From Chloroflexota bacterium (GTDB lineage Bacteria > Chloroflexota > Dehalococcoidia > UBA2247 > RBG-13-53-26): a DNA stretch of 64,000 bases. This document shows, piece after piece, positions 35,519 to 60,921 of this stretch (the first letter of the stretch is position 1; each line of letters opens with the position of its first letter). The stretch spans positions 41,366 through 105,365 of the forward strand of contig JAPLHP010000036.1 in the NCBI GenBank assembly GCA_026389585.1, read 5' to 3'. A program made the translations under genes and the position numbers. The notes below the pieces were generated by a model that saw nothing but the letters and a program-made list of their open reading frames with translations, searched no databases and was not told the origin of the DNA.

Positions 35519-35879
35519 ATGATGAGCAAACTCGGATTTCGCACCATGTGAATAGGCTAAAACTGAGTCCGGTCCGCGATAGTGAGCCACGCGGTTCAAT
35601 ATATAGAACTCCAGAACTGACCTTCAAGGCCGCTTTCGCTTTCCCCCTGAAGGCTCGGGCATTGTCCCAACGATATGCCTCCAGATAACAGAGCAAGCCC
35701 AGAGGCTTTGCCGCTTTCCTGGTGGAGACGGGGAAGAGTCGAAATCACATCTTCAATATTTGCAGCGGGGCTCTATCCCGTATGTGTCTAGTCGGACCTC
35801 ATCCAGATGGATCATACATTTCAAGCTTCTGTGTGATGCAACAATCTGGACTTTTGTTACCGCCTCTATTAAGTTCCAC

Positions 35880-36077
35880 ATCTCAGCCACCAACTGCCTT
35901 CTGAATGGTGGTGACGTGCTCTCTTTGCAGCAGATACTCGGGCACTCAAGCCTGGAGATGGTGCGGAGGTATGTGACGTTAGCGTCAGCCCGGGTCATGG
36001 TGCAACACAGGAAGTTCTCGCCGATGGACAGAATGAATCTTGGCAGAATGTGGCTGACTCGAGTGCCTCGCAACTAG
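35880..36077 (+). pseudogene. tyrosine recombinase/integrase C-terminal remnant
   Basis: LLNGGDVLSLQQILGHSSLEMVRRYVTLA matches the integrase C-terminal LGHsss.tT..Y.H region with catalytic Tyr. Upstream catalytic R/H boxes are degraded; only ~65 codons remain. Confidence 0.65.
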
Positions 36078-36952
36078 GGCAGGGACGCACGCAGAGCGGC
36101 AATGATTCGTTCTCCCTTGTTGGGGTCTTCACCAGCCGCACGCTTCTTGGCGACATATTCTTCGAGAATGCCCAGCGCTGCAACGTTTGAAACGTAGCGG
36201 AACAGGCCCGTTGCCCAAGCTGTCGAGCCTGGATTATGTGGATTCGTGTGATATTTCCAGAAATCGATCTCGTATCCTAGCATATCGTCCAGTGCACTGC
36301 TCTTGTCTCCAAAGATCTTGGTTTCTCTGCCAGGGTCTTCAACAAGCTTGGTGATTGCGAAAGCGCCCACCACAAAGCGGTCTCTGCGGTCTGGAGGCTC
36401 GGTGGTGAGAAGGGCTATCTTGCCTACTCTCGCGCCCCTGATCTTTCTGGGGCGGATCATCGTGCCATGTTCATCGGAGTCCCATCCCGCTGCGAAGTAG
36501 AAATCAATCAACGCTGTCGACTCATAGCATGGACTCCGTAGAGCTAGGTCCTGACCAACAAAATCTCTGCATCTGCTGAGTAGGCAGTACGGTCCTCCGA
36601 ATCTTAAATTGTGGACGTATGCTTTGTCACTGCATATGCCCTTGTATCCCTTATCATTCCAGTTGCACTTGAAGGCAATATTGCCATCCTCTTTCTTGCC
36701 AACTTCGCGGCGCTGCAATCCATCCTCGATTTCTCGCGCCAGAGTCTCGATCCTACAGCGCCGGTTCTCAACTATTGTCCGATGTATCTCATTACTGGGA
36801 TTGGCTGCTTCCTGGAGGCGTTGGAACGTCTCCTCCGCCGTTGAAAGGTGTTCTGCTGCCTGTTGGTAGACGAGACCATGGATCAGAGCCCCAATGTTGT
36901 TTAGTTGCTGATCCAGGGACTCGCGGATAGTGCGTAGATCGTCATTGCCCAT
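36074..36952 (-). CDS. hypothetical cysteine-rich protein, last gene of defense operon
   Basis: Start at MGNDDLRTIRESL overlaps the GmrSD stop. Cys cluster CNWNDKGYKGICSDKAYVHNLRFGGPYCLLSRC. No domain recognisable by eye. Confidence 0.45.
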   Translation of the reverse strand: MGNDDLRTIRESLDQQLNNIGALIHGLVYQQAAEHLSTAEETFQRLQEAANPSNEIHRTIVENRRCRIETLAREIEDGLQRREVGKKEDGNIAFKCNWNDKGYKGICSDKAYVHNLRFGGPYCLLSRCRDFVGQDLALRSPCYESTALIDFYFAAGWDSDEHGTMIRPRKIRGARVGKIALLTTEPPDRRDRFVVGAFAITKLVEDPGRETKIFGDKSSALDDMLGYEIDFWKYHTNPHNPGSTAWATGLFRYVSNVAALGILEEYVAKKRAAGEDPNKGERIIAALRASLP

Positions 36953-38858: not shown

Positions 38859-38910
38859 GAGTCATACACCAAGAAAATACTATGCAGAGAACAGCGTCGG
38901 CTGAGCCCGT

Positions 38911-39084
38911 CTACTTGCGCTTCGGAATCGTGTACGTTCCCTTTGCACCTTGATAGACGTTGAACTTCGACTTGCAGCTTTCGCACTCATAGCGCTTAAC
39001 ATCAGAGCTCCCGTACTTCCACGACCGAATGGGCTTGGTCGAGACAGGTCGACTACATATGGGGCAGTTTGTTGCAGTTACCAT
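38911..39084 (-). CDS. 57-aa zinc-ribbon protein inside the defense operon
   Basis: MVTATNCPICSRPVSTKPIRSWKYGSSDVKRYECESCKSKFNVYQGAKGTYTIPKRK. AAGGAGG RBS 7 nt upstream of the ATG. Below the ORF-table cutoff. Confidence 0.55.
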   Translation of the reverse strand: MVTATNCPICSRPVSTKPIRSWKYGSSDVKRYECESCKSKFNVYQGAKGTYTIPKRK

Positions 39085-39210
39085 ACAGACACCTCCTTGC
39101 CTGGTCCCTTATGGGTTGTCTACGTGACATATGGATGTATATTACTCTTCCTAAGAACAATTCTGCCAGTACCGCTCTGTAGGCCCGGATCGCGTTCTTG
39201 AATTCACTCG

Positions 39211-41976: not shown

Positions 41977-41983
41977 GGTCTCC

Positions 41984-44974: not shown

Positions 44975-44988
44975 GGTTCATCCCGAGT

Positions 44989-45732
44989 CTATTGAGAGCG
45001 GCTCGAATCTGACCCAAAGCCCAGCTGATTCGCCGCTTTTGCTCGCCGCGTTTTCCGTGACTTCCTGGCACTCCCTGTTGAGCTATGGGCTGTGCCCTCT
45101 TGAGCTGTAAGCTGGTCGGATTCGCTCATTGACTGGCTCACTAAGCGGAAGAACTCTGGCACAATCGGCTGATCGGGAGGACGGTCAGAGACCGGGTTCT
45201 CAGTCAGGGCAAATCGCACTGCCTTGCGCCAACCTCGCCCTCGGCCATCGGCGTAGCTGCCGGTAGCCGCCGCCGTCATGGTGTATAGCCACCAGCGCTC
45301 CTCGGGTGTCAGTCCCCGCCAGTTGGCGACCGCCGTAGGTATGAGGGCAGGGTCAGCATCTTCAAGAGCCCAGGTGAGGAGGGTCAGTTCTTTACCCAGC
45401 ATGCGGCTAACCGTATTGTAACCAGCTTTCCAGCGCCCCGGACGTTTGCCCTCTCTCTTGAGGCGCAAGTTGAACTCCGCGCGCACCAAGTCGGCGACTG
45501 CGTTCCATTTCGGCCGATCAAGTTGGCTTTTCACCTGGCCATCAAGACGCTCACCGTAGTGAACCGAATCGGCGATGCGATCGGGATCCCACGACAGATG
45601 TTCACTGATTGTGATGGGTTGCGTCGTGCCAGCAGGAATGTGAACCAGGAAATGGGAAACTGACTGGTTGGGGTCAAAGCCGAAAGTGTCGACAAGCACG
45701 TCCGGACTAGGTTTCTGGTTACGTTCAGCCAC
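44989..45732 (-). CDS. DUF3780-like protein (inferred from position between DUF499 and DUF1156 genes)
   Basis: 247 aa. Position and size match the DUF499-DUF3780-DUF1156-helicase arrangement predicted in defense islands. Family call relies on synteny, not verified motifs. Confidence 0.45.
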   Translation of the reverse strand: MAERNQKPSPDVLVDTFGFDPNQSVSHFLVHIPAGTTQPITISEHLSWDPDRIADSVHYGERLDGQVKSQLDRPKWNAVADLVRAEFNLRLKREGKRPGRWKAGYNTVSRMLGKELTLLTWALEDADPALIPTAVANWRGLTPEERWWLYTMTAAATGSYADGRGRGWRKAVRFALTENPVSDRPPDQPIVPEFFRLVSQSMSESDQLTAQEGTAHSSTGSARKSRKTRRAKAANQLGFGSDSSRSQ

Positions 45733-48700
45733 TATTGCCTCACCTCTGAAGCCTGATAGTCGGTCTTGTTCTCATTGATCCAGTCGAGGAACCCCTGCCC
45801 GCGCTCAAAGTGGAGGGCCGATACCTCGATACCGAGTTGACCTTCGTTGGTGAGCTTGCGGACGGCATCGGCGGCCTCCCGCAGGGCATCCGCACCAAGT
45901 TGGATCTTCTCATGCAGAGTGAGCTCAGCCCAACGGTTGCCCGTCACGCTGACCTTGATTCCACTCATGGACATGGGATGAGCCTTCAGTCTCTCCAGGA
46001 AACCATACGACTCGAGCGTGGTGTTAAACTCATGACGCCTGGTCCACGTCAGGGGTCTATCGGGGTCAATTTGCTTGTCCGTGTCGGGTCTGTCCCAAAG
46101 TATCTCGGCAGTCAACACTTCCGAGACGACGTCGCCGTGCATCGCTACCGCCAGGACGAACCGCGTGCCACGATGGACCTCGAAAGGCTCCTCGTAAGTA
46201 CCACCGGAAACCTTGGGGTCTGAGCCATCCGTGGTGTACTTGATCTCGGTGCGCCCGTCCTTGTTGGGGGCAGCTCGGAGCTCAACAATCTTGTTCCCTC
46301 TCTTGCCCGCGTAGGTCTTGTATTTCAAAGTCAGGCGGTTGCGCCACTTGTGATCCGGGCCAGAAGCATGCGTTCGCGTAGAATCCACGGCCAGAAACGA
46401 GACCTCCATTTCGCTCGTTCGATAAAGACCCTGCTCGACCTTCTGGGAGGCTTCCGTCGCATCAGCGCCGACTTCGGCGTACACAGTGTCGCCGTGCACA
46501 GGCGTAACCTTCAACTCCACCTCTCCAGTATCTTCATGGCGTGAGCGCTCCTGTATCTGCACCGAAGTGGTCTTGGGTGGTGGTGGGTTCCGGTCAACGT
46601 AGCCCGCCGGATCCTCGCGCCAGACCTCACGGTATACAAGATCATCCTTGATAGCATCGAGCGCCTCGCGACGGTGCCACTGCCACTGAGGGTTCATGGC
46701 AGCACGTCGCTTGACTTCGCTCCACAACATAACGGGTGTCGTAAACAGACGCGCTTCAATCTTCTTGCGGAATGTATCGCTCGTAACGTCTTCGGTGTAC
46801 TTCTGCTTGTCCTTCAAGACCTGGATGACCTGGTCCTCGCCGTTGTACTTGTTCCCCTCGTACTTCATCAGGAAGTCAGCAGAAAGGAAGACATCCGTAT
46901 CATTTTGACGGAAGGGGTAGTACAGAGTCGAGAATGTCTCTTTGACCGCTGAGAGGAACTGGCCCAGAATGCGATCCCGGAGTTCATCTGCCTGCTTGAA
47001 CTGAGGGTCCGTCTGAGGAGTCTTGTCCGCCTCCATTTCGTCGAGAATATGTTGGATAGCCTTGAGCCGCTTGGCGCTGTCGATTAGTGTGTCGAAGGTA
47101 TTGCGCGAACCCGTCAAGACGGCGATACGATTCTTGAAGGGAGTCTGCCCGTAGAATTGGACGAGTTGGGGGTTCAGACCCTGGCCAACGTAGGGCTCGG
47201 AGATGACGAGAGAGATGCGATCCTGGAACACTTGAATCTCGTCGATGGACGGCAGCACCAGTACTTCCTGATAGCACCAGCCCATCGGCGGTTTGAAAAG
47301 GGTCTTGAGGCGCTCTCTGAGTTCTTTCAATGCCTGTTCTCGGACATATGCAGTGGACAGCGACTCCAGCTTCGCGACGAGGTTCTGGACGTTCTTGAAG
47401 AACAGCCTGCCGTCACGATTGGAGTGGAGGTACCAGGCTGCAGTGGCAAGCTTCTCGAGAATATCGCTCTTGAGACGGGCCAGATTCCTACCGGGCGCGC
47501 AGAGGTAGCCCACCACTTCCGGGATGGTTAGGCCGACAACAGCATTCGGGACATTGGCCAGCGAAGACATGAAGATGAGCCGACATGCGTCCTGCGTGTC
47601 ATTCGTGCCCAGGTTCTGATCCATGACTTCGGCGACTGCTTTCCCCTGAGATGCAATATCGTGGGCCACGGCGTTGTCCAGTGTGGGGTTGATCTGGCGG
47701 ATTTCCGACAGGGTCTCGGGGTCGTTCAAGTCTATGTTGTGCACGCCAATGAGATACACCTTCTCCGCTTCCCCCGATTGCCACAGTCGCGAGGTGATGA
47801 TGCGCATCAGGCGGATCAGTGCACGGGTCTGCTGGAATCCGGGATTTTCACGAAAGCGTGCATACAGGTCTTTGATCGAAGGGTGGAACGGGTAACTGTC
47901 TTGGATGAACTGCGCAAACTTCTCTGGCGACTGGGCCGTAATGTCCATCTGTCGCGCCTCGCGGATGGCCTTGGCATATGCTTGGGCGACCTCTGTCACC
48001 TCCTCGTTTGGTGGCAGGTCCTTGAACAGGCGCTTCCGCAGGATGTGATAGAACTCATCTGTGTTGATTTGAACCGGCGTCAGGTTCATCGAGTGCCTTT
48101 GGGCCTCGCTCTGAAGCTGCTTCAGCAGGTCGGCGATCTGGGCACTAGCTTCGGCATAAGTGCCGACAAGGTCAGTCAGCACGATGCACACGTTGGCTAG
48201 CTCTTTCTCTGCGACTGCTTCGAAAAGGTTGGTCAGTGCTGTGGCCGTGACGTGCGAAAGATCTGAGTTGCCGACGGCGATTGACTTGGCGTTATCGAGG
48301 TAAGGTGGCAGTTCGTCGAGGAGTATCAGGGTAGGCTTGCCTTTGAGCAGGTTTATCCAGGCTGAGCGGCCCGGAGCCTTCAGCGGCGAATAGTAGTCCT
48401 TGAAGTCGGCATGTCTACCTATCTGACGCGCTATCTCTCCCCAGATACCGTGTGGAACGTCGGTTTCGCGGCCTGAGAAGGCAATGACTCGCACGGGTGG
48501 CAGCGCCTTCGCGCTTGGCAGTCCGGGCAGAACAGCTGCACGGAGTTCCGGATGCTTCGCCAACAGGCCAAGAGTGATGAGGTTATGTGTCTTGCCCCCA
48601 CCCATCGCCTGGGTGAGTTTGAATACTGCCTGCTCCGAACGACCCTCAAGTCGCCGGAGGGCCTCCATAAGCAGAGTTCGCATCCCGTCCGTGACATAGT

Positions 48701-48833
48701 TCTCTTCGAGGAAGGCCCTAGTGTCGATCTTGTCTTCGGCCAGATGCATCAGGTTGAGAACGGTGTCGCGACGAGCCGCGTCGAAGACGCTCTCGCGTGG
48801 TGTGCATAGGGTCTTGATCGATTTCATTTGCAC
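45732..48833 (-). CDS. DUF499 / BrxC-PglY-like P-loop ATPase
   Basis: 1033 aa, Walker A AMGGGKTHNL near the N-terminus, Walker B ILLDELPP. Size and architecture match DUF499. Confidence 0.7.
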   Translation of the reverse strand: MQMKSIKTLCTPRESVFDAARRDTVLNLMHLAEDKIDTRAFLEENYVTDGMRTLLMEALRRLEGRSEQAVFKLTQAMGGGKTHNLITLGLLAKHPELRAAVLPGLPSAKALPPVRVIAFSGRETDVPHGIWGEIARQIGRHADFKDYYSPLKAPGRSAWINLLKGKPTLILLDELPPYLDNAKSIAVGNSDLSHVTATALTNLFEAVAEKELANVCIVLTDLVGTYAEASAQIADLLKQLQSEAQRHSMNLTPVQINTDEFYHILRKRLFKDLPPNEEVTEVAQAYAKAIREARQMDITAQSPEKFAQFIQDSYPFHPSIKDLYARFRENPGFQQTRALIRLMRIITSRLWQSGEAEKVYLIGVHNIDLNDPETLSEIRQINPTLDNAVAHDIASQGKAVAEVMDQNLGTNDTQDACRLIFMSSLANVPNAVVGLTIPEVVGYLCAPGRNLARLKSDILEKLATAAWYLHSNRDGRLFFKNVQNLVAKLESLSTAYVREQALKELRERLKTLFKPPMGWCYQEVLVLPSIDEIQVFQDRISLVISEPYVGQGLNPQLVQFYGQTPFKNRIAVLTGSRNTFDTLIDSAKRLKAIQHILDEMEADKTPQTDPQFKQADELRDRILGQFLSAVKETFSTLYYPFRQNDTDVFLSADFLMKYEGNKYNGEDQVIQVLKDKQKYTEDVTSDTFRKKIEARLFTTPVMLWSEVKRRAAMNPQWQWHRREALDAIKDDLVYREVWREDPAGYVDRNPPPPKTTSVQIQERSRHEDTGEVELKVTPVHGDTVYAEVGADATEASQKVEQGLYRTSEMEVSFLAVDSTRTHASGPDHKWRNRLTLKYKTYAGKRGNKIVELRAAPNKDGRTEIKYTTDGSDPKVSGGTYEEPFEVHRGTRFVLAVAMHGDVVSEVLTAEILWDRPDTDKQIDPDRPLTWTRRHEFNTTLESYGFLERLKAHPMSMSGIKVSVTGNRWAELTLHEKIQLGADALREAADAVRKLTNEGQLGIEVSALHFERGQGFLDWINENKTDYQASEVRQ

Positions 48834-51196: not shown

Positions 51197-51576
51197 GTTG
51201 CAAGTAAGCCTCCAGTTGAAATTGTGTTGATCTTGAACTAGTGATGACCTGTGTTAGGGGTCGGTTGCGCCTACACGCAGGACATTGAAGTCCATCCTCG
51301 GGCTTCTATGAGTTGACAAGACCACCCCACCAAGTGCATCCATTAGGAAGTCCTTGTATATTGGCATGCCATATTCCACATCGTCACGCGCTGTCTCTCA
51401 AGAGATGCTCCTTTCGGAGCAGCGACAGGGTCATTGGGTAATGCCAGTCTTTGGATGAAACAGGCTTCCGCAGGCTGGGTGTTGACCAGAAGGAGACAGA
51501 TTTGATCCTAGAAGAGATTACTGGGTAAGCCGAAATACGTGGATTCAGAAGCATAACGTTCTACATCCCCCACTGA

Positions 51577-51690
51577 GATTGCTTCGCTGCGCTCGCAATG
51601 ACACCGGCGGCTAACCCGCAATGACACCAGCGGCCAACCGGAATGACACGGCACACAAACCCCTGAGCCATAAGCGAGAAGAAATACGAT
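51577..51690. repeat. dispersed repeat family copy C (head plus three ~22-bp GCAATGACACCGGCGGCTAACC units)
   Basis: GATTGCTTCGCTGCGCTCGCAATGACAC head, then tandem units as in 55764-55975. Confidence 0.65.
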
Positions 51691-51727
51691 ATGTTCGGAG
51701 ATGTTTCCTAGCCATGGGTCAGCCCCA

Positions 51728-52228
51728 TTAGTCATGGGCCAGGCGGCGTATCGTTGCGTTTATGGAGTTGCTCTCACCTTGGGTGATCAAGCCGTCACGG
51801 ACCGCCAGCTTCAACAGGTCTCCTGTACCAAAGACAGCAATAGATAAACTCACAGCCTTACATGCTTCGCGTGCAAGGCCATCATCTGTCGCTATATCGT
51901 AGCCCCTGTTGCAGGCGATGGCTATTGACGCGGATTCGCCCAGCCCCAGCCTCCTTCCAAGGAGCAGGTTAGCATATATCGAGATTTCTTCCCCGGAGGA
52001 TTCATCAAGAGTAACCACGCAGATGGTACCGTCAACCTGCATCTGTGTTAGAAGAGCTATGAGATATTGCCCTCTACCGGGCCAGCGTGAGGCTTCCTGA
52101 AGGACCTGGCCGGTGATGCAGAAAGTGCCCTTTGGCCAGATTCCCAGCACTCGAGCTAGAGCTCCGGCAGAATACAGTCTTGAGACAACGTCGTTATCGA
52201 GGACAACAGGTCTGTTGAAAGGCGACAT
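51728..52228 (-). CDS. PIN-like domain protein (DUF4411-like), putative toxin partner of ImmA/IrrE
   Basis: 166 aa. N-terminal VVLDNDVV plus downstream acidic residues fit a PIN fold. ATG directly follows the ImmA stop. Confidence 0.5.
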   Translation of the reverse strand: MSPFNRPVVLDNDVVSRLYSAGALARVLGIWPKGTFCITGQVLQEASRWPGRGQYLIALLTQMQVDGTICVVTLDESSGEEISIYANLLLGRRLGLGESASIAIACNRGYDIATDDGLAREACKAVSLSIAVFGTGDLLKLAVRDGLITQGESNSINATIRRLAHD

Positions 52229-53377
52229 TCAGGCATCGCCTTCCTTACTTTCTCCACTAAGCTCGTCTCTGAGTTCGTAGTAGTTCCTCCTCAGGAGTTC
52301 GGCCAGCTTCTCAAATGAGACAAGTTTCGCCTTGTAAGCCTCGTATGCCAGATATTTGTAATGACGAGGAAGCATGTCAGGGGGATCCTCTCTGTCACAA
52401 TATCCCAGCAGGATGGCGATAGGTGATGTGGTGACTCGTTGAGTCATAATGCCTTGCCATCTGGAAAGCGAGAGCTTCCTGAGAGATACCAACCTCCAGC
52501 CGGTTGCTTCAAAGCTGGTGCCGAAATAAGTCGCTAGATGAAAGACGACCTCAGCCGTTGGGGCAGTTGTCTGTTTGGATACAAACTGGCTCAACATCTC
52601 ATTCATGGCGCGTCTGGGCATCAGGAAAGCAGCGGCAAATGCATTGGCGAAACGTTCGTGAGGACGCCGTGTCACAAATCCAGTGTCGGTGTCAATGTGA
52701 GCATGGGCTAACTGATTCCGATGGGCAATGCAGTGCCCATACTCGTGTGCCACAGTAAATGTGCGCCTCCGCTGAGGATGAAGTGAGTTGATTAGCAAGC
52801 AGGCGCCAAGGTCCTTGTCACACGCAAAAGCGCCGGAGAACCCTTGTGATTCCTCCGGCAGGTGAAATATCTTCACCCCCCTCTTCTTTTCCAGTAAGTC
52901 GCAAATATCCTTTATGGGCTGACTATCAAGGCCCATTGAGCTTCGCTCAGCCACTGCCAGGTCTTCGGCCTGTTCCAGTGTTGTTGGAGAAGCACTTGAG
53001 TAGTCAGGCGGCCCCGGCATCTCTGGCGCTCCCACGAGCTGCATCAGGTCTCGGTAGTCTTTGCATAAGTCTTGAAATCCGATGATTGTCTCCCGGGGAA
53101 CAGCTGCTGCTGAAGCAGCTCGGAGTAGAACGGAGAAGCAGGCACTGGACTCGTCCTGGTCAAAGAAGAAGGTCAGGGGACGATGATATAACTTGGCGAA
53201 CTTGTATAACTCTACGGCCGAGACACGTCGCTTCTGACTCTCAATGTCTGAGACGGTGGATGTTGCGAGGCCCATACTCTCGCCGACCTGGCTGAGAGTG
53301 AGTCCCAAGGCTGTTCTGGCTTGCCTCAGCATACGGCCGACTGCGACAGGCAAATCCGTCGTTGCACTAACAACCAT
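52229..53377 (-). CDS. XRE-HTH + ImmA/IrrE-family (COG2856) zinc metallopeptidase
   Basis: N-terminal HTH (LGLTLSQVGESMGLATSTVSDIESQKR). HExxH motif HEYGHCIAH. Confidence 0.75.
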   Translation of the reverse strand: MVVSATTDLPVAVGRMLRQARTALGLTLSQVGESMGLATSTVSDIESQKRRVSAVELYKFAKLYHRPLTFFFDQDESSACFSVLLRAASAAAVPRETIIGFQDLCKDYRDLMQLVGAPEMPGPPDYSSASPTTLEQAEDLAVAERSSMGLDSQPIKDICDLLEKKRGVKIFHLPEESQGFSGAFACDKDLGACLLINSLHPQRRRTFTVAHEYGHCIAHRNQLAHAHIDTDTGFVTRRPHERFANAFAAAFLMPRRAMNEMLSQFVSKQTTAPTAEVVFHLATYFGTSFEATGWRLVSLRKLSLSRWQGIMTQRVTTSPIAILLGYCDREDPPDMLPRHYKYLAYEAYKAKLVSFEKLAELLRRNYYELRDELSGESKEGDA

Positions 53378-53489
53378 GTTTGCCCTCCTTCAGCCGACTT
53401 CGGAAAAGTACAACATTATTGGATTCGAGAGCATTTTATCACACGAATTTTCGGAGGTCAACATTTGTTGCATTGCGCCAGAGGCACAT

Positions 53490-53629
53490 AGCAGCCGTTC
53501 CTGTCACTTCAGGGCGGCGACGACTTTATTGGTTTGTCTTTCTAAGGCTTCCAAGGAAGACTCGTTGGTGATAGTGAAGTCTGCCATGGCGATGGGCCCA
53601 CCTTTGTTGAGCTCCTGTATCTCCATCGC
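53490..53629 (-). pseudogene. diverged remnant of the 3' end of the UPF0200 kinase gene (att-like scar)
   Basis: Encodes MEIQELNKGGPIAMADFTITNESSLEALERQTNKVVAALK, ~88% nt identical to the 3' end of 58694-59236 including 14 bp past the stop. Starts right at the AbiEii stop. Confidence 0.7.
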
Positions 53630-54523
53630 TCAATTTCCTTCTGAATCGGTTTCGGCTCTTGCGGGAAAGAGTTCCTTCAGGGCTGACATAAATTCATCAA
53701 GCTGCAAACCGGGGCGATAATAAGGGCTTTCCCTCAATCGGATCATGCCCGGATGGTCGAGGGCGGAGAAGTGTTTCAAGACCAGACGTCCTGCCTCCAT
53801 AATGTATGGATCGTCTCCGTACTGATGGCGCAATTCAAGGGCATGTTTCCACTCCGTCTCCATGGTCGTCGCCAGGATGGTGTACATATCCAGGGCATGG
53901 TAGCGACCGAATTCCTTGTTGGCATCGTTGAGCCGGTCCTTGAAGGCGAATAGTTTCATCATCAGGAACGTGTAGGGTTGCGGAAGAAAGACCTCAGCTT
54001 GCCAGGGCTCGCCTGAACTGAGTTTCCCATTCAGCGTTTCCGGCAACAGCCCTTCTTCCAACGTCGGAACTTCGTCGACGGGATGGGCGTGAATGCCAAC
54101 GGAAGGATCGGGCCGGGCACGGCGGGTGTCCGTTTTCACCCGTGTGCCCTCAAAACGGCTTTGCGGACCGGTAAGGATGTCTATCTTGACGCTGCCTGCC
54201 TGAGCGCCTCCAGGACCGAGCTTCATAAACTGGTATTTCTCTGCGCCGCGAACAACCTTATAGCCCAGCCTGGCAATGGCCTCTGCCAGTGGTTTCAATT
54301 TTGCTGACTGGATGAGCAGTTCCGGACGTAGAAACAAATCAAGGTCGTTGGTGGAACGTGCTTCAGGCCATTCACGGAAGAGTGTTGGCGCACCGAGGCG
54401 GCGCACGTAATCGGCCTTGAGGTAGATGCCAAAACCGCCGCCAATGATGAGTCTGATATCCGCGCCTTGCACTTCGTAGAGCAGATCGAGCAACGCCGTT
54501 TGAAGGTCGGGGATCGTGATCAT
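53630..54523 (-). CDS. AbiEii/DUF1814-like nucleotidyltransferase (type IV TA toxin family)
   Basis: 297 aa, NTase motif IIGGGFGIYL...NDLDLFL. Overlaps the upstream gene by 4 nt. Confidence 0.55.
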   Translation of the reverse strand: MITIPDLQTALLDLLYEVQGADIRLIIGGGFGIYLKADYVRRLGAPTLFREWPEARSTNDLDLFLRPELLIQSAKLKPLAEAIARLGYKVVRGAEKYQFMKLGPGGAQAGSVKIDILTGPQSRFEGTRVKTDTRRARPDPSVGIHAHPVDEVPTLEEGLLPETLNGKLSSGEPWQAEVFLPQPYTFLMMKLFAFKDRLNDANKEFGRYHALDMYTILATTMETEWKHALELRHQYGDDPYIMEAGRLVLKHFSALDHPGMIRLRESPYYRPGLQLDEFMSALKELFPARAETDSEGN

Positions 54524-55671
54524 TGCTGCTCTCGGTGAAGATTCACCAAGAGGAACGACTTCACCTGTTCGGCAGTCTCCCGGTCACGCTTGTCGCCGGC
54601 CATCAACTCCAAATACACCTGCACAGGGGAGGCCCACCAGAAGTTTCCCTCCTGCCGGGCATCGAAGTAGACCGTTTCATCCTCTGTCTCGACGACTTCA
54701 AGGTTCGGGAAGCGATCCGACTGACTCCCAGACAGCCGCTCCAGCAGCATCTCCAAACGCGGGCAGTAGACAGAGAACAGATCCCCTCGCTGCATCACGG
54801 CATATTGCGCCACCGATGATGTCCCTGCAGCCACAAGGGGCAGGCCCAATTCCAGCGACTGCTTTTGCAGCGATTCCCGGATCGTTCCGTTCCCTTCCGA
54901 GACTTTGAGGCGGACTCGCTCCCTGATTTTCGGAGGGACATAGTTGTCACTCAGTTTTTCCAGAAGTTTGTCGGGTTGCAGCAGGCAAATGGTACTCTTG
55001 CGCTCGACGACCAAATCCTCCCCCAACGTCTTCAACACTTTCGACACCGTCGACAGGCTCATGGGCCTCGTAGCCCAACGGTTCACCAGCATGTTTCGCC
55101 GGTTGATCTCGGCGCAAATCTCTTGAACGGTGTCGTAGCTGGAACGGGCGAGGAAGACCCTGCCAACCATGGAACTGTTCTTCCGATAGATGTTCTTGAT
55201 CGGTGCTGAGGAGGAAAAACAGTTCTTCTCGCCGCTGCGGAACAGGGCAAACATGCCCGGCACAACCACCACGCCGTTACCGCACAGGTCTATGCCGCTG
55301 ATGCCTTCCCGCTCCAGCTCCTGCAGTTGCCGTTCACTGAGGAAAGGCATGATAAGCATAGGCCGGTAGCTCTTCGGGAGCGACAATAGTTTCAGCAGGT
55401 TGAGCCCATCCTGAAACGCCTTGGGCGTCGATAGGGATTTGCATTCGACGGCGAACTTTGCCGTGCTCTCACGCCATGATACCTCAATCAATGCATCGAG
55501 GCGACGGTTTCCGCCTGCTTCAGGCTGACTCTCCAGGAAGCGAAAAGACAGCGGAGGCAGTGAGACTTTACCTCTCCGAAGCTGTTCAATCATCTCCCTC
55601 TCTGTTGTCATTTTCCTGATGCTTTTCATTTTCCTAAACAAGAAAATAGCAGTTTTTAGGAAAACATGCAA
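54520..55671 (-). CDS. putative AbiEi-like antitoxin/regulator (hypothetical)
   Basis: 383 aa, upstream of and overlapping the NTase gene as in AbiEi/AbiEii pairs. No motif verified by eye. Confidence 0.35.
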   Translation of the reverse strand: MHVFLKTAIFLFRKMKSIRKMTTEREMIEQLRRGKVSLPPLSFRFLESQPEAGGNRRLDALIEVSWRESTAKFAVECKSLSTPKAFQDGLNLLKLLSLPKSYRPMLIMPFLSERQLQELEREGISGIDLCGNGVVVVPGMFALFRSGEKNCFSSSAPIKNIYRKNSSMVGRVFLARSSYDTVQEICAEINRRNMLVNRWATRPMSLSTVSKVLKTLGEDLVVERKSTICLLQPDKLLEKLSDNYVPPKIRERVRLKVSEGNGTIRESLQKQSLELGLPLVAAGTSSVAQYAVMQRGDLFSVYCPRLEMLLERLSGSQSDRFPNLEVVETEDETVYFDARQEGNFWWASPVQVYLELMAGDKRDRETAEQVKSFLLVNLHREQQ

Positions 55672-55679
55672 GTCTTATC

Positions 55680-55763
55680 TTACGGGTTACGGCTCAGGGC
55701 TGCGATGACTTTATTGGTTTGCCTTTCCAGGGCTTCTAGAGAGGATTCGTTGGTGATAGTCGA
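55680..55763 (-). pseudogene. second remnant of UPF0200 kinase gene 3' end
   Basis: Encodes ...TITNESSLEALERQTNKVIAALSRNP. Closer to the 53490 remnant than to the intact gene. Confidence 0.65.
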
Positions 55764-55975
55764 GATTGCTTCGCTGCGCTCACAATGACACCAGCGGCTA
55801 ACTGCAATGACACTGCGGCTAACCAGCAATGACACCGGCGGCCAACCAGCATGACACGGTGACCAACCGGAATGACACAGTGGGCAATATGCCACCATGA
55901 CACTCATGCAGTTTGTCACCCTGAGCGAAGGCGAAGGGTCTCCCCTCACAAAGCGAATGACGCCTATTCCTGCAT
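55764..55975. repeat. dispersed repeat family copy D (longest tandem array)
   Basis: GATTGCTTCGCTGCGCTCACAATGACAC head, ~6 tandem 21-23-bp CAATGACACNGCGGCTAACC units, GTCACCCTGAGCGAAGGCGAAGGGTCTCCCCTCACAAAGCGAATGACGCCTATTCCTGCA tail shared with copy A. Confidence 0.7.
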
Positions 55976-55991
55976 CCAGGCACCAGGCGTC

Positions 55992-56696
55992 CTACTGTTT
56001 CGCTGCCTGCGCGGGTATTCTGTAGGGACAGGTTGCCCTGAGGTTGCAGTGAGCACACACGTCGGCCTGTGTCCAGGTCGACATCCGTGGGCCTATGCCA
56101 ATGACCATGGAGAGGGACTTCAGCGGAATCATCATCCCTGTGGAGGTCAGACTGACTCCGATTTCGTTAGCAGGCACCAGCCCGAACAATTGCTGCTGTT
56201 CCGAAAGGGGAAACCCAGGCATGCCCGGGTTGAGAGGACTGCTGGCCTGGCAATTGCGGAATGATGCCTCACGAGTCACGATACGGCACACCTCCAGGTT
56301 CAAAGCATCCACAGCAGCACTTCCGATGCCATCAAGCAGCAGCCCCCGCAAGGGTTCACTCTTGCTGAAGCACATCTTTGACTCCTGCTCCAACCTCGGA
56401 CCAATAGTGCAGACCGCGACAGCAAGCTCCCGAGCCTCCGGAAAAAATGAAGGAACCAGCGGCCCATGAACGACTGTGCTCCCCTGCAGTGTCAACTGGT
56501 CATGGGTTTTCTCAGTTATGGGGTGGATTTCATAGGCGACGGCTGGCTCTAACAGATGCTCACAGTCTACTTTGGCCAGCAGCTCATTGACTAACTTGCC
56601 AATCTCAGGCCTCAGCCGAGAGTATTCGCTCACTCCTTCCCGACGAAACACTGCCTGGGTTGTCAGGCTCAGGGTGATATCACGTACTACAGTCAT
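55992..56696 (-). CDS. methionine-synthase B12 activation-domain-like protein (putative corrinoid activation/accessory protein)
   Basis: 234 aa, in an operon with a corrinoid protein and an MtaA-like methyltransferase. C-terminal Cys motif CAHCNLRATCP. Family assignment tentative. Confidence 0.35.
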   Translation of the reverse strand: MTVVRDITLSLTTQAVFRREGVSEYSRLRPEIGKLVNELLAKVDCEHLLEPAVAYEIHPITEKTHDQLTLQGSTVVHGPLVPSFFPEARELAVAVCTIGPRLEQESKMCFSKSEPLRGLLLDGIGSAAVDALNLEVCRIVTREASFRNCQASSPLNPGMPGFPLSEQQQLFGLVPANEIGVSLTSTGMMIPLKSLSMVIGIGPRMSTWTQADVCAHCNLRATCPYRIPAQAAKQ

Positions 56697-56881
56697 CCCT
56701 TTACCCTTCCATTGGCTGAGGGGCAGTCCACGAGAAGCATTCCTGCGAGGATACCTCTCGTGGCAGACACGAACCGGAATCAGGCACGAAAGCCATCCTG
56801 ACAGTACGGCCTTTCCAACACAATCGAACCGGTGGCGCTCTCTGGCATCGAAGACCTTTCACTGCTCACGCAGTGAGGAAG

Positions 56882-58030
56882 CTATCTTCCAGACAATTCG
56901 TAGCTCTTAGCAGTCTCAATCATAGCCCTGAAGTTTTCCGGCTTGCAGTTGGGTGGTGTAGCGCAACCGGTCCCGAGGATGAACCCTCCCCCTTTGCCAA
57001 CTTCATCAATGAGCTTCCGGCAATAGGCTGCCACCTCCTCCGGCTTGCCCAGGGACAGCAGCGACGCCGGAACGTCACCGTAAATGCAGAGGTGGTCCCG
57101 CAGGATTTCCTTGGCCAAGAAGATGTTGGTGGTACTGTCGAGCCCCACCACCGCGGACCCCTTCGGAAGCTTCCGCAAGTAGGGAAGGTTCTTGTTCCAG
57201 CATGTATCCAAGTGAAAGATGGTAGTGATCCCCTCGGACCAGAAAGCGCCAATGATCTCCTGCGTGTAAGGCCACCAGAACCGCTCGAAGACGGACAAAG
57301 GGTAGTTTAAGCCGGAGGCTCGCTCATCAACGAACAGCCATGACTTCATGCCAAACGCTTTACAGACACCGATCTGCTTCGGAATCAGTTCGGCCGTCAT
57401 CTTCTTCATGGCTCTTTCCACCGGCGCGGGATTGTAATAGATGTCTTTGGTAAACGGGATCATAGAGCGCATAAGCGACAGCCTGAAGAATGGGTGAAAC
57501 TCATGGGCAGCAAGGAACGGTTCGATCCGCCTCTTCTTCAGTTCCTCGGTGTATGTACCCCAGTTTGTCAGCGTTTCCCACAGGTGAGTCTGCAGCTCGT
57601 CGGGCCGGAAGCTGGCGATCCGCCACAGATAGTCCTTGTAGTAGAACGCGTCAGCCCCCATTTCACAAAGCTTCTCGTAGTCCTCAGGTTTCATAACTTC
57701 TTCTTCCAGGAGCTGGAACATATAGTCGTCGGGCAGGTCCTTTCCTGGAATCCGCATCTTCATCGGATATATGTTGGCTGCCTGCGATTGAACCGGTGTG
57801 ATCGGTCCGCCATAAGCACAGTCCCAACCTCCACAATCATCGAACACTTTGAAGAACGCCGCCTGTGCCATCTTGGCGTCATTGCTGACCTGAGCCATGG
57901 TCATGCCTGCAAGATGCGCTGCGGGCTCCGGGCTGAGGAATGGGACTATGGGGACGCGGTCCGTTTTCTCCAGTCTGGTGGCCGCCCACGTTCTCTCGGT
58001 GGAGGTCATGGTTTCCCTGGCCATCTTCAC
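56882..58030 (-). CDS. uroporphyrinogen-decarboxylase-family (MtaA/CmuA-like) corrinoid methyltransferase
   Basis: 382 aa URO-D fold protein adjacent to a B12-binding protein. Confidence 0.6.
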   Translation of the reverse strand: MKMARETMTSTERTWAATRLEKTDRVPIVPFLSPEPAAHLAGMTMAQVSNDAKMAQAAFFKVFDDCGGWDCAYGGPITPVQSQAANIYPMKMRIPGKDLPDDYMFQLLEEEVMKPEDYEKLCEMGADAFYYKDYLWRIASFRPDELQTHLWETLTNWGTYTEELKKRRIEPFLAAHEFHPFFRLSLMRSMIPFTKDIYYNPAPVERAMKKMTAELIPKQIGVCKAFGMKSWLFVDERASGLNYPLSVFERFWWPYTQEIIGAFWSEGITTIFHLDTCWNKNLPYLRKLPKGSAVVGLDSTTNIFLAKEILRDHLCIYGDVPASLLSLGKPEEVAAYCRKLIDEVGKGGGFILGTGCATPPNCKPENFRAMIETAKSYELSGR

Positions 58031-58659
58031 TTCCCTCCTATCACATTCAGGCAGTAGGCTACGCCTTCCATGGCGTCCAGAGTCTGGAAGTCAGCTCCGA
58101 CGTAGTCCCTCGTCATGGGGGTGGTCACTCCCCCTCCGATCATCAGTTTCGTATTTTTCCTCAGCCCGGCTTCTTGAAGCATCCGGGCAGCCTCCTTCAT
58201 GCTGGGGAAAGCCGTGGTGATGAGCGCTGAGAACCCGACAAACCGAGGCTTGACCTTCTTCACCTCCACCAGCACGCGGGACGGCGGCACGTCCACGCCC
58301 AGATCGTGCACTTCAAAGCCGTGAGCCTGCAGCAGGGTAGCCACGATATCCTTGCCCAGGTTGTGGATGTCGCCCTGCAGCGTAGCCAGCACGACCCTGG
58401 CCAGGGGCTTTTCAGGACGCAACCTGGCCAGGTGCGGTTGCAGTATATTCATCGCTTCTTTGAAGATTTCGGCGGAAAGCATCAGTTCGGCCAGAAAGTA
58501 ATCGCCTTTCTGAAAGCGCTCGCCAACAGTGCTCATGCCATGACGGCATTCTTCCAGGATCCGGAGGGGTTCCTCGCCTTTCTCCAGCCTGGATCTGACA
58601 GCCTGCACCGCCTCATCACGCTTCAACTCGACAATAGCCATGCTAAGTTCTTCAGACAT
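58027..58659 (-). CDS. corrinoid (cobalamin-binding) protein, MtaC-like
   Basis: 210 aa. B12-binding motif GDIHNLGKDIV (DxHxxG). N-terminal helical cap domain. Confidence 0.8.
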   Translation of the reverse strand: MSEELSMAIVELKRDEAVQAVRSRLEKGEEPLRILEECRHGMSTVGERFQKGDYFLAELMLSAEIFKEAMNILQPHLARLRPEKPLARVVLATLQGDIHNLGKDIVATLLQAHGFEVHDLGVDVPPSRVLVEVKKVKPRFVGFSALITTAFPSMKEAARMLQEAGLRKNTKLMIGGGVTTPMTRDYVGADFQTLDAMEGVAYCLNVIGGK

Positions 58660-58693
58660 TTGGCCTCCTTGTTTCCTCAGGCAGCCGTTCCTG

Positions 58694-59236
58694 TCACTTC
58701 AGGGCTGCAACGACTTCTCTGGTCTGTCTTTCCAGGGCTTCTAAAGAAGATTCGTTGGTGATGGTGAAGTCTGCCATGGCGATGGGCCCACCTTTGCTGA
58801 GCTCTTCGATCTCCGCCATGTCCCGGCCGGCAGCTTCATCAAGCGTCAGGGGGCGGATGGGCCTTTTCGTCAACCTCTGATATCGTGTCTGGGGAGAGGC
58901 CCAAACTGCCACCACGGTAAAACGGCCGCCGTAGCGGTCCTTCAACAGAGTGTATTCTTCCCATGAGTAGAGGCCGTCCACAACGACATCAGCCGATTTG
59001 AGGAGGCGATCAATCCTGGGCAGGCTGAGCCTGGCATAAGCTGACATTCCATGCTCTTTTCTGAGTTGTCCCCTGACATACCGTTCGTTTTTCTCGTTCA
59101 GCTCGAGCCCTCTTTCCCTGACCTCTTCATCGGTAATATCGCCGAACCTGACTCTCACAAAGCCGCTATTTTCAAATACTCTGGCTACCTCTGATTTGCC
59201 CGAGCCTGCCATACCAACAATCGATACCACTTTCAT
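58694..59236 (-). CDS. UPF0200-family P-loop nucleotide kinase-like protein (archaeal dephospho-CoA-kinase-like)
   Basis: 180 aa, P-loop VGMAGSGKSEV. Its 3' end has diverged copies at 53490-53629 and 55680-55763. Confidence 0.6.
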   Translation of the reverse strand: MKVVSIVGMAGSGKSEVARVFENSGFVRVRFGDITDEEVRERGLELNEKNERYVRGQLRKEHGMSAYARLSLPRIDRLLKSADVVVDGLYSWEEYTLLKDRYGGRFTVVAVWASPQTRYQRLTKRPIRPLTLDEAAGRDMAEIEELSKGGPIAMADFTITNESSLEALERQTREVVAALK

Positions 59237-59239
59237 GGT

Positions 59240-59806
59240 TTACTTCTTCTCTTTAGTTTTGGGCTGAAGACTCCTTTTTATCTCCTCTTCCTCCTGAGCA
59301 AGCAGCTCCTTCAACTCTGCGACATCATAGCTCTTTACCCCGACACCCCGCTCTCTCATGTGCACCCTGGTGATCCCGGCGTTAATGATCAGTTTCTTGC
59401 AGATCAGACAGGGCCCGTAGATTCGATCATTTTCTCCCCGGCTGGCATCATAGGCATCCTTATTTCTTTCACTGGAAATATACATTTCCCCACCGACTAT
59501 GCTGATGCCCGTCCTGGCGGCATTGATTATGGCGTTTTGTTCTGCATGGACACTGCGGCACAATTCGTACCGTTGACCGGGCGGAATATTGAGTTCCCTC
59601 CTGAGACATATTCCGGTGTCAATACAATGGGCTGTCGTTCTGGGAGACCCCACATAGCCTGAGCTAAGCTCTACACCATCCTGGCCGACAATAATCGCCC
59701 CTATCTTTCTTCTGAGACAGGTACTCATTTCCGATACAACCTCTGCCCGGTTCAAGAAGTGCTCAAACTTGTCAGGTCTTTTCACCTTAGGCCAGCGAGT
59801 AGTCAC
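59240..59806 (-). CDS. dCMP deaminase-family zinc deaminase (ComEB-like)
   Basis: 188 aa, VHAEQNAI and PCLICKK zinc-binding motifs. Confidence 0.8.
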   Translation of the reverse strand: MTTRWPKVKRPDKFEHFLNRAEVVSEMSTCLRRKIGAIIVGQDGVELSSGYVGSPRTTAHCIDTGICLRRELNIPPGQRYELCRSVHAEQNAIINAARTGISIVGGEMYISSERNKDAYDASRGENDRIYGPCLICKKLIINAGITRVHMRERGVGVKSYDVAELKELLAQEEEEIKRSLQPKTKEKK

Positions 59807-60801: not shown

Positions 60802-60871
60802 CGTTCGCGCCCTCCCTGCTGAAGTATTGACATGACCGGTGCAACCAGGCACCAGTCAGCGTAACAACCGA

Positions 60872-60921
60872 GATTCTTCGCTGCGCTCAGAATGACACCC
60901 ATTTCTGCCACCAAGCACTAG
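60872..60921. repeat. dispersed repeat family copy E (50-bp miniature: head + tail only)
   Basis: GATTCTTCGCTGCGCTCAGAATGACAC joined to ...CCAAGCACTAG, matching the head and tail of copy A (7225-7460). Confidence 0.6.

Follow-up and report, generated by a model that had tools for sequence, protein, structure and literature searches.

Nested remnants of a kinase gene end in a strain-variable, defence-rich insertion hotspot of an uncultured Dehalococcoidia lineage

Displacement arrays are known from the effector-immunity loci of the Vibrio cholerae T6SS (PMC5361080) and, as far as Jackson et al. 2009 is cited there, from Rhs loci. The mechanism of a homologous anchor combined with an illegitimate join has a published precedent, homology-facilitated illegitimate recombination being rare in experiments (PMC5361080). 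In the ssrA islands of Dehalococcoides the repeat is fixed at 20 bp, insertion is at a single nucleotide, and a conserved integration module includes the DsiB serine recombinase (PMC3146451); accretion of ICEs and CIMEs has been reviewed (PMC5704250). ICE/CIME arrays occur at fda. Core defence hotspots with conserved flanks are described in Pseudomonas aeruginosa (cDHS, PMC10250203). Here we analyse a locus within a 64,000-nt stretch of a Dehalococcoidia contig (the window), in which two pieces of a kinase gene end lie among cargo blocks.

The anchor of this locus is an intact P-loop kinase gene of 180 aa (58694-59236, minus strand), which passes Pfam AAA_18 and AAA_17. With more than 5,800 homologues, and conserved in the 160 Dehalococcoidia loci retrieved, it is, judged by sequence, the conserved anchor of the hotspot. 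The initial annotation called it a UPF0200 kinase, but the family cut-off is not reached (NCBIfam PRK08356, 52 bits vs. 189); relatives are named ‘dephospho-CoA kinase’ by JGI. A dCMP deaminase gene lies upstream (59240-59806), and downstream are the first 24 nt of the native flank (58670-58693, minus strand; CAGGAACGGCTGCCTGAGGAAACA), as identified by blastn against the related loci L001, L081 and L180/181. Between strains the kinase has 88–93% nucleotide identity, below the 94–96% of the upstream deaminase and dodecin genes, and the L001 and L181 copies are 96.7% identical in the final 121 nt vs. 88% mid-gene. By these alignments the kinase gene is mosaic between strains, and raised diversity combined with mosaic alleles is the mark that homologous crossovers within an anchor leave.

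Downstream of the kinase the order is corrinoid genes with a truncated MITE, remnant B of the kinase end, an AbiE-like pair, remnant A, an RmrA-like pair and the original flank. Recurrence of the kinase 3′ end at 53490-53629 (~88% identical) and over ~70 bp at 55680-55763 had been noticed before, and the repeat search, MAFFT alignment and tblastn agree on it. Remnant A (53491-53624, minus strand) corresponds to kinase positions -120 to +13 relative to the stop codon (MAFFT) and matches 58681-58814 as a 134-nt repeat of 88% identity (family D3). The in-frame 40-codon remnant reported earlier is present as ORF 53504-53626, which reads MEIQELNKGGPIAMADFTITNESSLEALERQTNKVVAALK. Remnant B (55694-55763, minus strand; kinase codons about 158–179, -66 to -3 by MAFFT) has an alternative tail, SRNP* (55680-55693). 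A three-copy repeat family (D2, 76 nt, 82–84%) joins 53509-53584, 55694-55769 and 58699-58774, and the 63-nt segment from -66 to -3 is common to all three kinase copies. When the kinase protein was compared with the window by tblastn, both remnants were found far beyond chance (E=4.5e-16 for A, E=2.7e-5 for B).

Remnant A differs from live alleles by 8–11 synonymous and 2–5 non-synonymous substitutions (P=1.5e-4 against neutrality, given 27 synonymous and 90 non-synonymous sites) and from remnant B by nine synonymous and one non-synonymous. Its left part (-120 to -67) has zero non-synonymous differences from a live allele. The peptide EIQELN...KVVAALK of remnant A is that of the natural alleles P0241-P0245, and KVIAAL of remnant B is that of natural allele P0242. 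Both remnants are nearer to the L001 allele (91%) than to the window's own kinase (84–88%). Because the differences are mostly synonymous and the peptides match natural alleles, the remnants are, on sequence grounds, evidently the ends of different, once-functional kinase alleles and not decayed local duplicates. That both remnants have QTNKV where the intact gene has QTREV had been noticed before and is real, but L001, the closest relative, also has QTNKV, so the motif belongs to an allele of the population and is not peculiar to the remnants.

The block next to the kinase (unit 3, 55764-58669, minus strand; Pfam, NCBIfam) carries genes for a B12-binding corrinoid protein (58027-58659) and a URO-D/MtaA-like methyltransferase (56882-58030), a weak Met_synt_B12-like ORF (55992-56696) and a 5′-truncated MITE-like repeat (55762-55988) fused straight to remnant B. 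The truncation follows from the alignment of copies and from the full copy at 7190-7459, which has terminal inverted repeats of 26 nt. The independent P0242 contig has the same junction of kinase, 34 nt and B12-binding gene. A corrinoid methyltransferase ‘trio’, as first proposed, is not a coherent unit: in L177-L179 the B12-binding and URO-D pairs come without a third gene, and similarity ends directly behind the stop codon of URO-D.

Unit 2 (53623-55690, minus strand) is a two-gene pair, distantly AbiEi/AbiEii-like, that encodes a protein of 357–383 aa (54520-55671) and a nucleotidyltransferase-like protein of 297 aa (53630-54523), the genes overlapping by 4 nt. Pfam matches fall below thresholds (AbiEii, PF08843, E=0.012, 16 bits vs. 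22.5; AbiEi_2, E=0.005, 17.6 bits vs. 21), PADLOC gives AbiEii at E=0.006, and NCBIfam and PDB sequence searches returned no match. The AF2 model, with a pLDDT of 49, is too poor for use. The earlier AbiEi/AbiEii assignment therefore holds as a distant likeness and not at the family level, the Pfam scores lying under the cut-offs. Since the weak matches are to cognate partners, in the right order and in overlapping genes, ‘AbiE-like’ seems a reasonable name for a pair whose sequences miss the AbiE thresholds. Homologues number more than 1,000 at 75–86% amino acid identity. In 16 other contigs the nucleotide homology (82–87%) extends exactly from 55690/55672 to 53623, and none of the 16 has kinase-like flanks around the pair.

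Unit 1 (51710-53490, minus strand; Pfam, PADLOC, promoter scan) consists of an RmrA-like protein with XRE-HTH and M78 peptidase domains (52229-53377), its 166-aa partner (51728-52228, PADLOC PDC-S70) and a promoter-like site (53461-53433). It was inserted into the original flank, after +13 and before +17, with no kinase sequence duplicated; on its distal side the flank simply continues, without a kinase repeat. This displaced flank (51644-51709, minus strand; +17 to +64/+84 after the stop) begins with AGGAAACA, which is also the end of the flank at 58670-58677. Aligned locally with the flank of L001 it scores 56, vs. a shuffle maximum of 28, the L081 alignment covers +21 to +84, and a blastn match supports it as well. 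The displaced flank continues into a partial MITE copy (51575-51655).

Five strain-level relatives, with kinases of 88–94% nucleotide identity, keep the kinase and 24–60 nt of flank, beyond which come five different cargoes. An RT island follows the kinase in L001, a type II RM system in L081 and a type I RM system in L180-182; B12-binding genes follow it in the P0242 contig and in the window. Collinearity with L001, L081 and L180/181 stops at 58670-58674 of the window (blastn), and the closest relatives lack the window's blocks and have other DNA at the same place. The strain-variable stretch comprises the whole of ~33.4–58.67 kb. Over the close strains the defence content includes RM, RT, GmrSD, toxin-antitoxin pairs and a DUF499/DUF1156 system. 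Immediately downstream of the kinase there is thus a hotspot of insertion that varies between strains, with mostly defence genes as cargo; as in core defence hotspots, the flanks are conserved and the defence-rich content is strain-specific. The initial annotation had read the region as serial insertions, with kinase-derived remnants delimiting separately acquired blocks, and this reading stands. Relatives were checked for an unchanged gene order and the remnants for an origin in some unrelated repeat, and neither was found. The earlier division into two units needs extension by a third unit, the displaced flank and the rest of the variable stretch. The region is near dnaA, which is located in the window; the plastic regions of Dehalococcoides are also near the origin. 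A study of E. coli defence islands reportedly also describes hotspots flanked by conserved genes.

Similar scars are found at the far side. The last 71 codons of hisS recur at 35310-35526 (plus strand; tblastn of L001 HisS, E=3e-15; repeat family D7) and a second hisS remnant of 68 nt lies at 34070-34137; the far-side junctions of the relatives map to window positions 35398 (L001), 35443 (L180) and 34137 (L081). Adjoining the hisS remnants is a decayed tyrosine-recombinase fragment (35802-35972, plus strand, within the stop-to-stop ORF 35607-36074). All that remains is the C-terminal end of ~57 residues, LGH...Y motif included, matching positions 134–170 of 172 of Pfam PF00589 (E=5.9e-5) and 216–272 of 274 of a purpose-built HMM. 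In L180/L182 a 30-nt duplicated kinase start, its two copies being different alleles, flanks a ~495-nt repeat cluster, and L081 has a remnant of a Fer4 gene end.

We favour, with a probability of roughly 0.55, sequential displacement, in which each block arrived by a homologous crossover in the kinase/deaminase side and an illegitimate join at the other end. At least three cargo additions next to the kinase 3′ end probably took place in the window's lineage. First, the RmrA-like pair would have entered the native flank at +13/+17. An incoming kinase allele, its last codon fused to the AbiE-like pair, would then have replaced the resident down to -120, leaving the resident's last 120 nt and flank as remnant A. 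Finally the present allele, bringing 24 nt of flank together with the corrinoid genes and a partial MITE, would have replaced the resident gene down to -66 and left remnant B. On this interpretation remnant B would be the displaced end of a previous resident in which the AbiE-like block had taken the place of the last codon, and remnant A that of an allele older still. In each event the conserved kinase/deaminase side would serve as the homologous anchor and the far end as a non-homologous (microhomology) join, a process of homology-facilitated illegitimate recombination that would need no dedicated integrase or fixed att site. Neither the state in which the AbiE-like pair directly follows kinase...SRNP* nor the state of kinase, flank and RmrA-like pair was found in the loci fetched, so we can only infer the order of events, and we likewise infer the recombination mechanism; the kinase-B12-binding state is present in another strain (the P0242 contig). 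Features expected of displacement are seen here: an anchor followed by same-orientation orphan 3′ ends amid older cargo, ends that derive from different, formerly functional alleles, signs of homologous crossovers within the anchor, and non-homologous distal joins at variable positions with little or no microhomology. Against displacement speak the missing intermediates and the need for three joins of an experimentally rare kind in the space of 120 nt at a single gene end, as do the possible crossover core in the shared segment from -66 to -3, the recombinase fragment in the island beside a hisS remnant, and junction microhomologies so short (2–8 nt) that they could be chance.

The initial annotation had instead attributed the remnants to site-specific integrative elements that bring a replacement 3′ end. 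In its best form, tandem accretion of integrase-less, cis-mobilizable elements with a core in the kinase 3′ end, this is a possible but distinctly less probable explanation. Direct repeats of the target 3′ end do bound units 2 and 3, as integrative-element accretion/CIME requires and as is classical for tandem cargo; the 63-nt segment common to the three copies leaves room for a common core; purifying selection on the gene-restoring arm would also account for mostly synonymous differences; a decayed recombinase lies in the same island; and the same bacterial class offers a precedent, including integrase-less tandem islands attributed to accretion (PMC3146451). The junctions rather suggest otherwise. 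In the window the gene-proximal ones are found at -3, +13 and +24, in relatives at about +29 to +60, and the islands of relatives begin in the flank (+24 to +60) and not inside the kinase, with no repeat of it on their far side; the distal ones lie at -120 (joined to the NTase stop plus 6 nt) and -66 (joined to the truncated MITE, cut internally). Repeat boundaries vary between units and strains, whereas the ssrA repeat is fixed at 20 bp. Junction sequence in common is at most 2–8 nt, with 2–4 nt (‘ATGG’/‘GG’) between blocks and remnants and GGCT and AGGAAACA at the flank junctions.

We found no evidence for a dedicated integrase as the agent. Both units lack one, as first noted, with none in 51.7–58.7 kb; none lies within 15 kb of the remnants, and the fragment at 35802-35972 is the window's sole trace. 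A tyrosine-recombinase HMM seeded with an XerD sequence, and covering tyrosine recombinases only, found none adjacent to the kinase in the ORFs of the 160 related loci; serine recombinases were checked through Pfam on large ORFs. The viral contigs searched had no kinase-like att sequence. Accretion is further weakened by the arrival of unit 1 without a kinase repeat, by the AbiE-like pairs elsewhere without kinase-like flanks and by the trio that is not a conserved unit. The -120 to -67 part of remnant A would never have been translated under accretion, yet it has no non-synonymous difference from a live allele.

Campbell-type insertion without an integrase, in which circles looped out of a donor array by RecA re-insert by a single crossover in the kinase 3′ end, would yield exactly the architecture seen, a duplicated homologous segment flanking each block, and would fit the intragenic mosaicism and the functional-allele origin of the remnants. 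It is improbable, as it needs a pre-existing repeat-flanked array and so leaves the first event unexplained, together with unit 1 and the relatives' islands that have no kinase repeats; moreover, homology of just 63–134 nt at 82–91% identity is a poor RecA substrate. To a similarly small degree we credit an unrecognised, possibly dedicated process that would add compact cassettes at housekeeping gene ends and regenerate each end. The ends affected would be the kinase 3′, hisS 3′ and Fer4 3′ (L081) ends and the kinase 5′ start (L180), and the outcome would be cassette arrays resembling those of integrons, but with neither attC sites nor an IntI integrase.

Local duplication of the kinase end, for example by template switching during insertion of a block, with later decay of the copies, is very unlikely. 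Duplication of the target on either side of an insert is a natural outcome of template switching, and the junctions do have short microhomologies, but neutral decay would be mostly non-synonymous, whereas 11 of the 16 differences from live alleles are synonymous (P=1.5e-4), and the near-absence of non-synonymous change between the remnants, their natural peptides and their proximity to the L001 allele argue the same way. An assembly chimera, in which stretches from co-occurring strains were wrongly chained at the kinase end they have in common, is hardly credible even for a metagenome-assembled genome with several related strains, since it needs shared k-mers where the joins of the truncated MITE to -66 and of the NTase stop plus 6 nt to -120 share 2–4 nt, and independent contigs confirm the kinase-B12-binding and MNT/hisS-remnant adjacencies.

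Under sequential displacement, the build-up of a defence hotspot in an uncultured, streamlined lineage could be read from this locus with unusual clarity. The stacked remnants and displaced flank would give the order of three acquisitions, each with a different flanking core-gene allele. This supports the view that small defence and toxin-antitoxin modules, and in this case corrinoid methyltransferase genes too, may spread in Dehalococcoidia through recombination between strains and not through self-mobile elements. Strain-variable defence cargo of this class can be mined with the kinase/deaminase pair as anchor, and a repeated gene 3′ end alone does not prove an integrase-borne element.

Sequential displacement is a known kind of event. 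As in Rhs and T6SS arrays, a conserved 5′ anchor is followed by same-orientation orphaned 3′ ends of earlier alleles amid retained cargo, and a homologous anchor with an illegitimate join is proposed without involvement of an integrase. Unlike in those arrays, the anchor is a small housekeeping-type kinase instead of a polymorphic toxin, the displaced pieces measure just 70–134 nt, the cargo is of toxin-antitoxin/defence type with corrinoid methyltransferase genes in place of immunity genes, and the orphan ends have no obvious selective reason for retention. With the ssrA islands and ICE/CIME arrays the locus shares tandem blocks between direct repeats of a single-copy gene's 3′ end, some of them integrase-less, and with the Dehalococcoides islands also the bacterial class and a highly plastic region. 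It differs from the ssrA islands in its varying repeat boundaries, the lack of an integration module and the start of the relatives' islands in the flank. Like core defence hotspots, many of which have no detectable mobility gene and for which transfer by homologous recombination in the flanks is proposed, it has constant flanks and defence-rich content that differs between close strains. Unlike them, it lies in an uncultured Dehalococcoidia lineage and holds a metabolic (corrinoid) module, and its internal scars, gene-end remnants and a displaced flank, would record the order of acquisition.

The window comes from an uncultured Dehalococcoidia (Chloroflexota) bacterium, and the gene that anchors the locus, on the minus strand at 58694-59236, encodes a 180-aa P-loop kinase (Pfam AAA_18 and AAA_17). 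A repeat search of the window paired 53491-53624 with 58681-58814 (134 nt, 88% identity), and a three-copy repeat family, 76 nt at 82-84%, brought in 55694-55769. In alignments the first of these displaced pieces, remnant A, spans -120 to +13 relative to the kinase stop codon, and the second, remnant B, spans about -66 to -3 before running into a different tail (...AALSRNP*). When the kinase protein was searched against the window by tblastn, remnant A was recovered at E=4.5e-16 and remnant B at E=2.7e-5. Repeat matches, alignments and tblastn thus confirm the two remnants reported in the initial annotation, including the 40-codon ORF in remnant A. The QTNKV/QTREV difference that it held to separate the remnants from the intact gene is also present, but QTNKV is an allele carried by L001, the closest relative of the window, as well.

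Synonymous and non-synonymous differences were counted over the last 39 codons, which hold 27 synonymous and 90 non-synonymous sites. Set against the live alleles (those of the window and of the related strains' loci L001, L081 and L181), remnant A has 8-11 synonymous changes and 2-5 non-synonymous ones; under neutrality, the probability of at least 11 synonymous among 16 changes is 1.5e-4. Between the two remnants there are nine synonymous changes and one non-synonymous change. In the protein database, the remnant peptide EIQELNKGG...KVVAALK matches the natural alleles P0241-P0245, and KVIAAL matches P0242. The synonymous bias and these peptide matches show that the remnants are the ends of different kinase alleles, each functional up to its displacement. 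On a hybrid origin of remnant A from two alleles, the differences speak neither way: they cluster in the last 50 nt, but do so among live alleles too. Using tblastn with a word size of 2, no further kinase remnants were found within 10 kb in 160 related loci. Rfam at gathering thresholds returned only two tRNAs; no riboswitch was among the matches, and neither the remnants nor the MITE-like family described below matched a known RNA.

The kinase itself shows some further features. An exact-sequence look-up of the window kinase returned no record. In L001 (10001-10544) a 1-nt insertion (CAAACCCAATAA) cuts it to 173 aa, either through a sequencing error or because the gene is inactivated. Residues 79-178 of the window kinase weakly match the NCBIfam 'anti-phage dCTP deaminase' model (E=2.7e-7). 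A dCMP deaminase gene always adjoins the kinase in Dehalococcoidia. It comes in two types (37-42% versus 81-98% identity) and two alternative gene orders; most of the class, the more distant members, have a second type directly after the kinase. The deaminase-kinase pair (58694-59806) could serve either nucleotide salvage or defence.

Collinearity with L001, a Dehalococcoidia MAG contig with about 94% nt identity, extends from window position 63998 to 58670, takes in the kinase and 24 nt past its stop codon, and breaks off there. The next ~50 nt of the L001 flank are found again at window 51709-51655 in kinase orientation, with a local alignment score of 56 against a shuffle maximum of 28, and positions +21..+84 of the L081 flank align to window 51707-51644. 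The octamer AGGAAACA (+17..+24) closes the flank at 58670-58677 and opens the displaced flank at 51702-51709. From the end of L001 collinearity, the displaced flank and the shared octamer, the locus can be read in gene orientation as follows: the kinase with its flank to +24 (to 58670); unit 3, with B12-binding, URO-D-like and Met_synt_B12-like genes and a MITE (58669-55764); remnant B (55763-55694); unit 2, the AbiE-like pair (55690-53623); remnant A (53624-53491); unit 1, with a promoter, an RmrA-like XRE/M78 protein and a small partner (53490-51710); the original kinase flank, displaced (51709-51644); and a partial MITE (51655-51575). The initial annotation listed the two remnants and missed the fourth piece, the displaced flank. 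Unit 1 interrupts the flank between +13 and +17, with no kinase sequence duplicated, and its promoter-like site was the sole match of a terminator/promoter scan.

In gene orientation, the junctions read GCAATCTCGACTATCACCAACGAATCC (MITE/remnant B), GCAGCCCTGAGCCGTAACCCGTAAGATAAG (remnant B/AbiE-like pair), GGAAATTGAGCGATGGAGATACAGGAGCTC (NTase stop/remnant A), GGAACGGCTGCTATGTGCCTCTGGCGC (remnant A/unit 1) and CCCATGGCTAGGAAACATCTCCGAAC (unit 1/original flank). Distal junctions lie at -120 and -66 and proximal ones at -3, +13 and +24, with those of the relatives at +29..+60, so that the position is different in every event. Only 6 nt separate remnant A from the NTase stop codon, and the shared sequence there is just ATGG/GG. 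In the MITE copy at 55762 the first ~32 nt are missing and the remainder is joined to position -66 of the kinase, which places the unit 3/remnant B junction inside the MITE; the full MITE-like copy at 7190-7459 bears 26-nt terminal inverted repeats. The family is ~270 nt long, has internal ~22-nt 'AATGACAC' sub-repeats and no Rfam match, and includes, besides the full copy, those at 55762-55988, 51575-51655 and 60849-60909 and at 2400-2860 of L180. Its copies are strain-polymorphic, the one at 60849-60909 being missing in L001 and a cluster of them lying between deaminase and kinase in L180 and L182.

In five strain-level relatives (kinase 88-94% nt identity), the kinase is retained with 24-60 nt of flank, and the DNA beyond it differs: a ~4-kb island with a reverse transcriptase in L001, a type II restriction-modification system in L081 and an 8-kb type I restriction-modification system in L180, L181 and L182. 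The contig of the natural allele P0242 has the kinase, 34 nt and a B12-binding gene, arranged as in the window. In the window, the kinase flank is followed by ~23 kb of cargo, which beyond the three units includes an HD/dGTPase-like gene, a DarG-like gene, GmrSD, two small toxin-antitoxin pairs and a DUF499/DUF3780/DUF1156/PLD-helicase system. GmrSD (36942-38858) and this four-gene system (39211-48833; DUF499, DUF3780, a DUF1156 methyltransferase and a PLD-SNF2 helicase) make up a defence block at 36942-48833 with very strong PADLOC matches (694-967 bits). Collinearity on the far side restarts at window 35398 in L001, 35443 in L180 and 34137 in L081; one strain-variable hotspot therefore reaches all the way from about 33.4-35.4 kb to 58.67 kb, and the two units first described are its kinase-proximal layers. 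No kinase repeat was found at the far end of the relatives' islands. The variable region starts about 10 kb away from dnaA (22094-23410), which makes it probable that the hotspot lies close to the replication origin. The high-plasticity regions of Dehalococcoides genomes are also near the origin.

Displaced gene ends are not confined to the kinase. Compared with L001 HisS, the window holds hisS 3'-end remnants at 34070-34137 (last 20 codons) and 35310-35526 (last 71 codons), which bracket a HEPN/MNT pair; one of them sits immediately behind the stop codon of MazF in an RHH/MazF pair. The kinase-side pattern is thus mirrored at the far side of the island, and intact hisS is absent from the window. 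In L081, a ~70-97-nt copy of the 3' end and flank of a Fer4 gene (window 60378-60309) lies at 684-780, ~100 nt downstream of the kinase and before the restriction-modification island. A scar of this type also marks the kinase start in L180 and L182: 30 nt of it are present twice, as two different alleles, on the two sides of a ~495-nt cluster of repeats that separates deaminase from kinase. Elsewhere, 31 nt at 20846-20876 resemble a tRNA 3' end (AGGGATTCGAACC...) shared with two tRNA genes at 27049-27202; the stretch overlaps a dUTPase ORF (20715-21170) and may be either an att scar derived from a tRNA or a coincidental match.

The AbiE-like pair belongs to a very large and highly conserved family: >1,000 homologues, 75-86% identical in aa, occur in Chloroflexota and Deltaproteobacteria, in unrelated contexts that include toxin-antitoxin arrays, a sugar-transport locus and a BREX operon (in L163, with an Eco57I-family (PF07669) methylase-like gene on one side and PglZ on the other). 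In 16 other contigs, 82-87% nt homology to the pair ends at CDS boundaries and no kinase-like flanks surround it. At this identity non-coding flanks would diverge anyway, so the boundaries show only that no kinase-like flank travels with the pair and do not define element ends. The AbiEi/AbiEii label has sub-threshold matches to both partner families behind it, but no Pfam, NCBIfam or PADLOC model scores above threshold; PDB sequence searches were empty, and an AF2 model of the NTase from a shallow alignment (pLDDT 49) was too poor to use. The corrinoid trio proposed as a unit does not hold as a conserved one, as B12-binding and URO-D pairs in other contigs (75-94% nt identity) lack the third gene and diverge directly after the URO-D stop.

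How were these layers assembled? The initial annotation attributed them to site-specific integrative elements inserting at the kinase 3' end, which is a possible explanation since positions -66..-3 are common to the three kinase copies and the island contains an integrase fragment; ssrA islands provide an integrase/accretion precedent in the same bacterial class (PMC3146451). Several observations nevertheless count against a dedicated integrase at a fixed site: junctions vary, the MITE is cut internally, and sequence shared between the NTase stop and remnant A is minimal. No recombinase gene lies in 51.7-58.7 kb, and the sole recombinase trace in the window, at 35802-35972 and just right of the hisS remnants, is a C-terminal piece of a tyrosine recombinase, 57 residues long (Pfam PF00589, E=5.9e-5). 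A tyrosine-recombinase HMM, seeded with an E. coli XerD sequence and iterated on locus ORFs, found no integrase beside the kinase in 160 related loci; its only hits were a few fragments and, in one of the loci (L051), a XerD-like gene at a distance of 6 kb from the kinase. The annotated left half of the window, with dnaA, housekeeping genes and one IS200-like transposase, has no serine recombinases, and viral contigs contained neither kinase-like DNA or protein nor an AbiE-like NTase. Direct repeats of 91 nt (1773-1863 and 2454-2544), made of GC-rich hairpins, border the Y1 transposase gene (1971-2456), and pieces of this hairpin repeat also occur in the L180 cluster; 1773-2583 looks like either an IS200/IS605 element or a REP-associated tyrosine transposase. 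An assembly chimera is unlikely, since no k-mers are shared across the junctions and independent contigs confirm two adjacencies. Local duplication followed by decay is rejected on the synonymous bias of the remnant differences.

Sequential displacement at the hotspot is the best-supported reading. Strain-to-strain identity of the kinase (88-93%) is lower than that of the deaminase and dodecin genes just upstream (94-96%), and the gene is mosaic, L001 and L181 being 96.7% identical in the last 121 nt and 88% mid-gene. On these comparisons, kinase divergence, mosaicism and recurrent gene-end scars favour homologous exchange anchored in the kinase. Incoming DNA of related strains would recombine homologously on the kinase/deaminase side, while its other end would join illegitimately within the last 120 nt of the resident kinase; each event would install a new kinase allele with new cargo and push the old gene end and its cargo downstream. 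Serial insertion marked by displaced gene ends is thus supported and extends to three units and a displaced flank; site-specific integrative elements as its mechanism are not supported.

The same displacement mechanism has been proposed for Vibrio cholerae T6SS immunity arrays and Rhs loci (PMC5361080), and turnover by recombination in the flanks has been proposed for core defence hotspots (PMC10250203). This kind of locus is already known, and the one described here is another example, in which the way a hotspot was assembled in uncultured Dehalococcoidia is recorded at good resolution.
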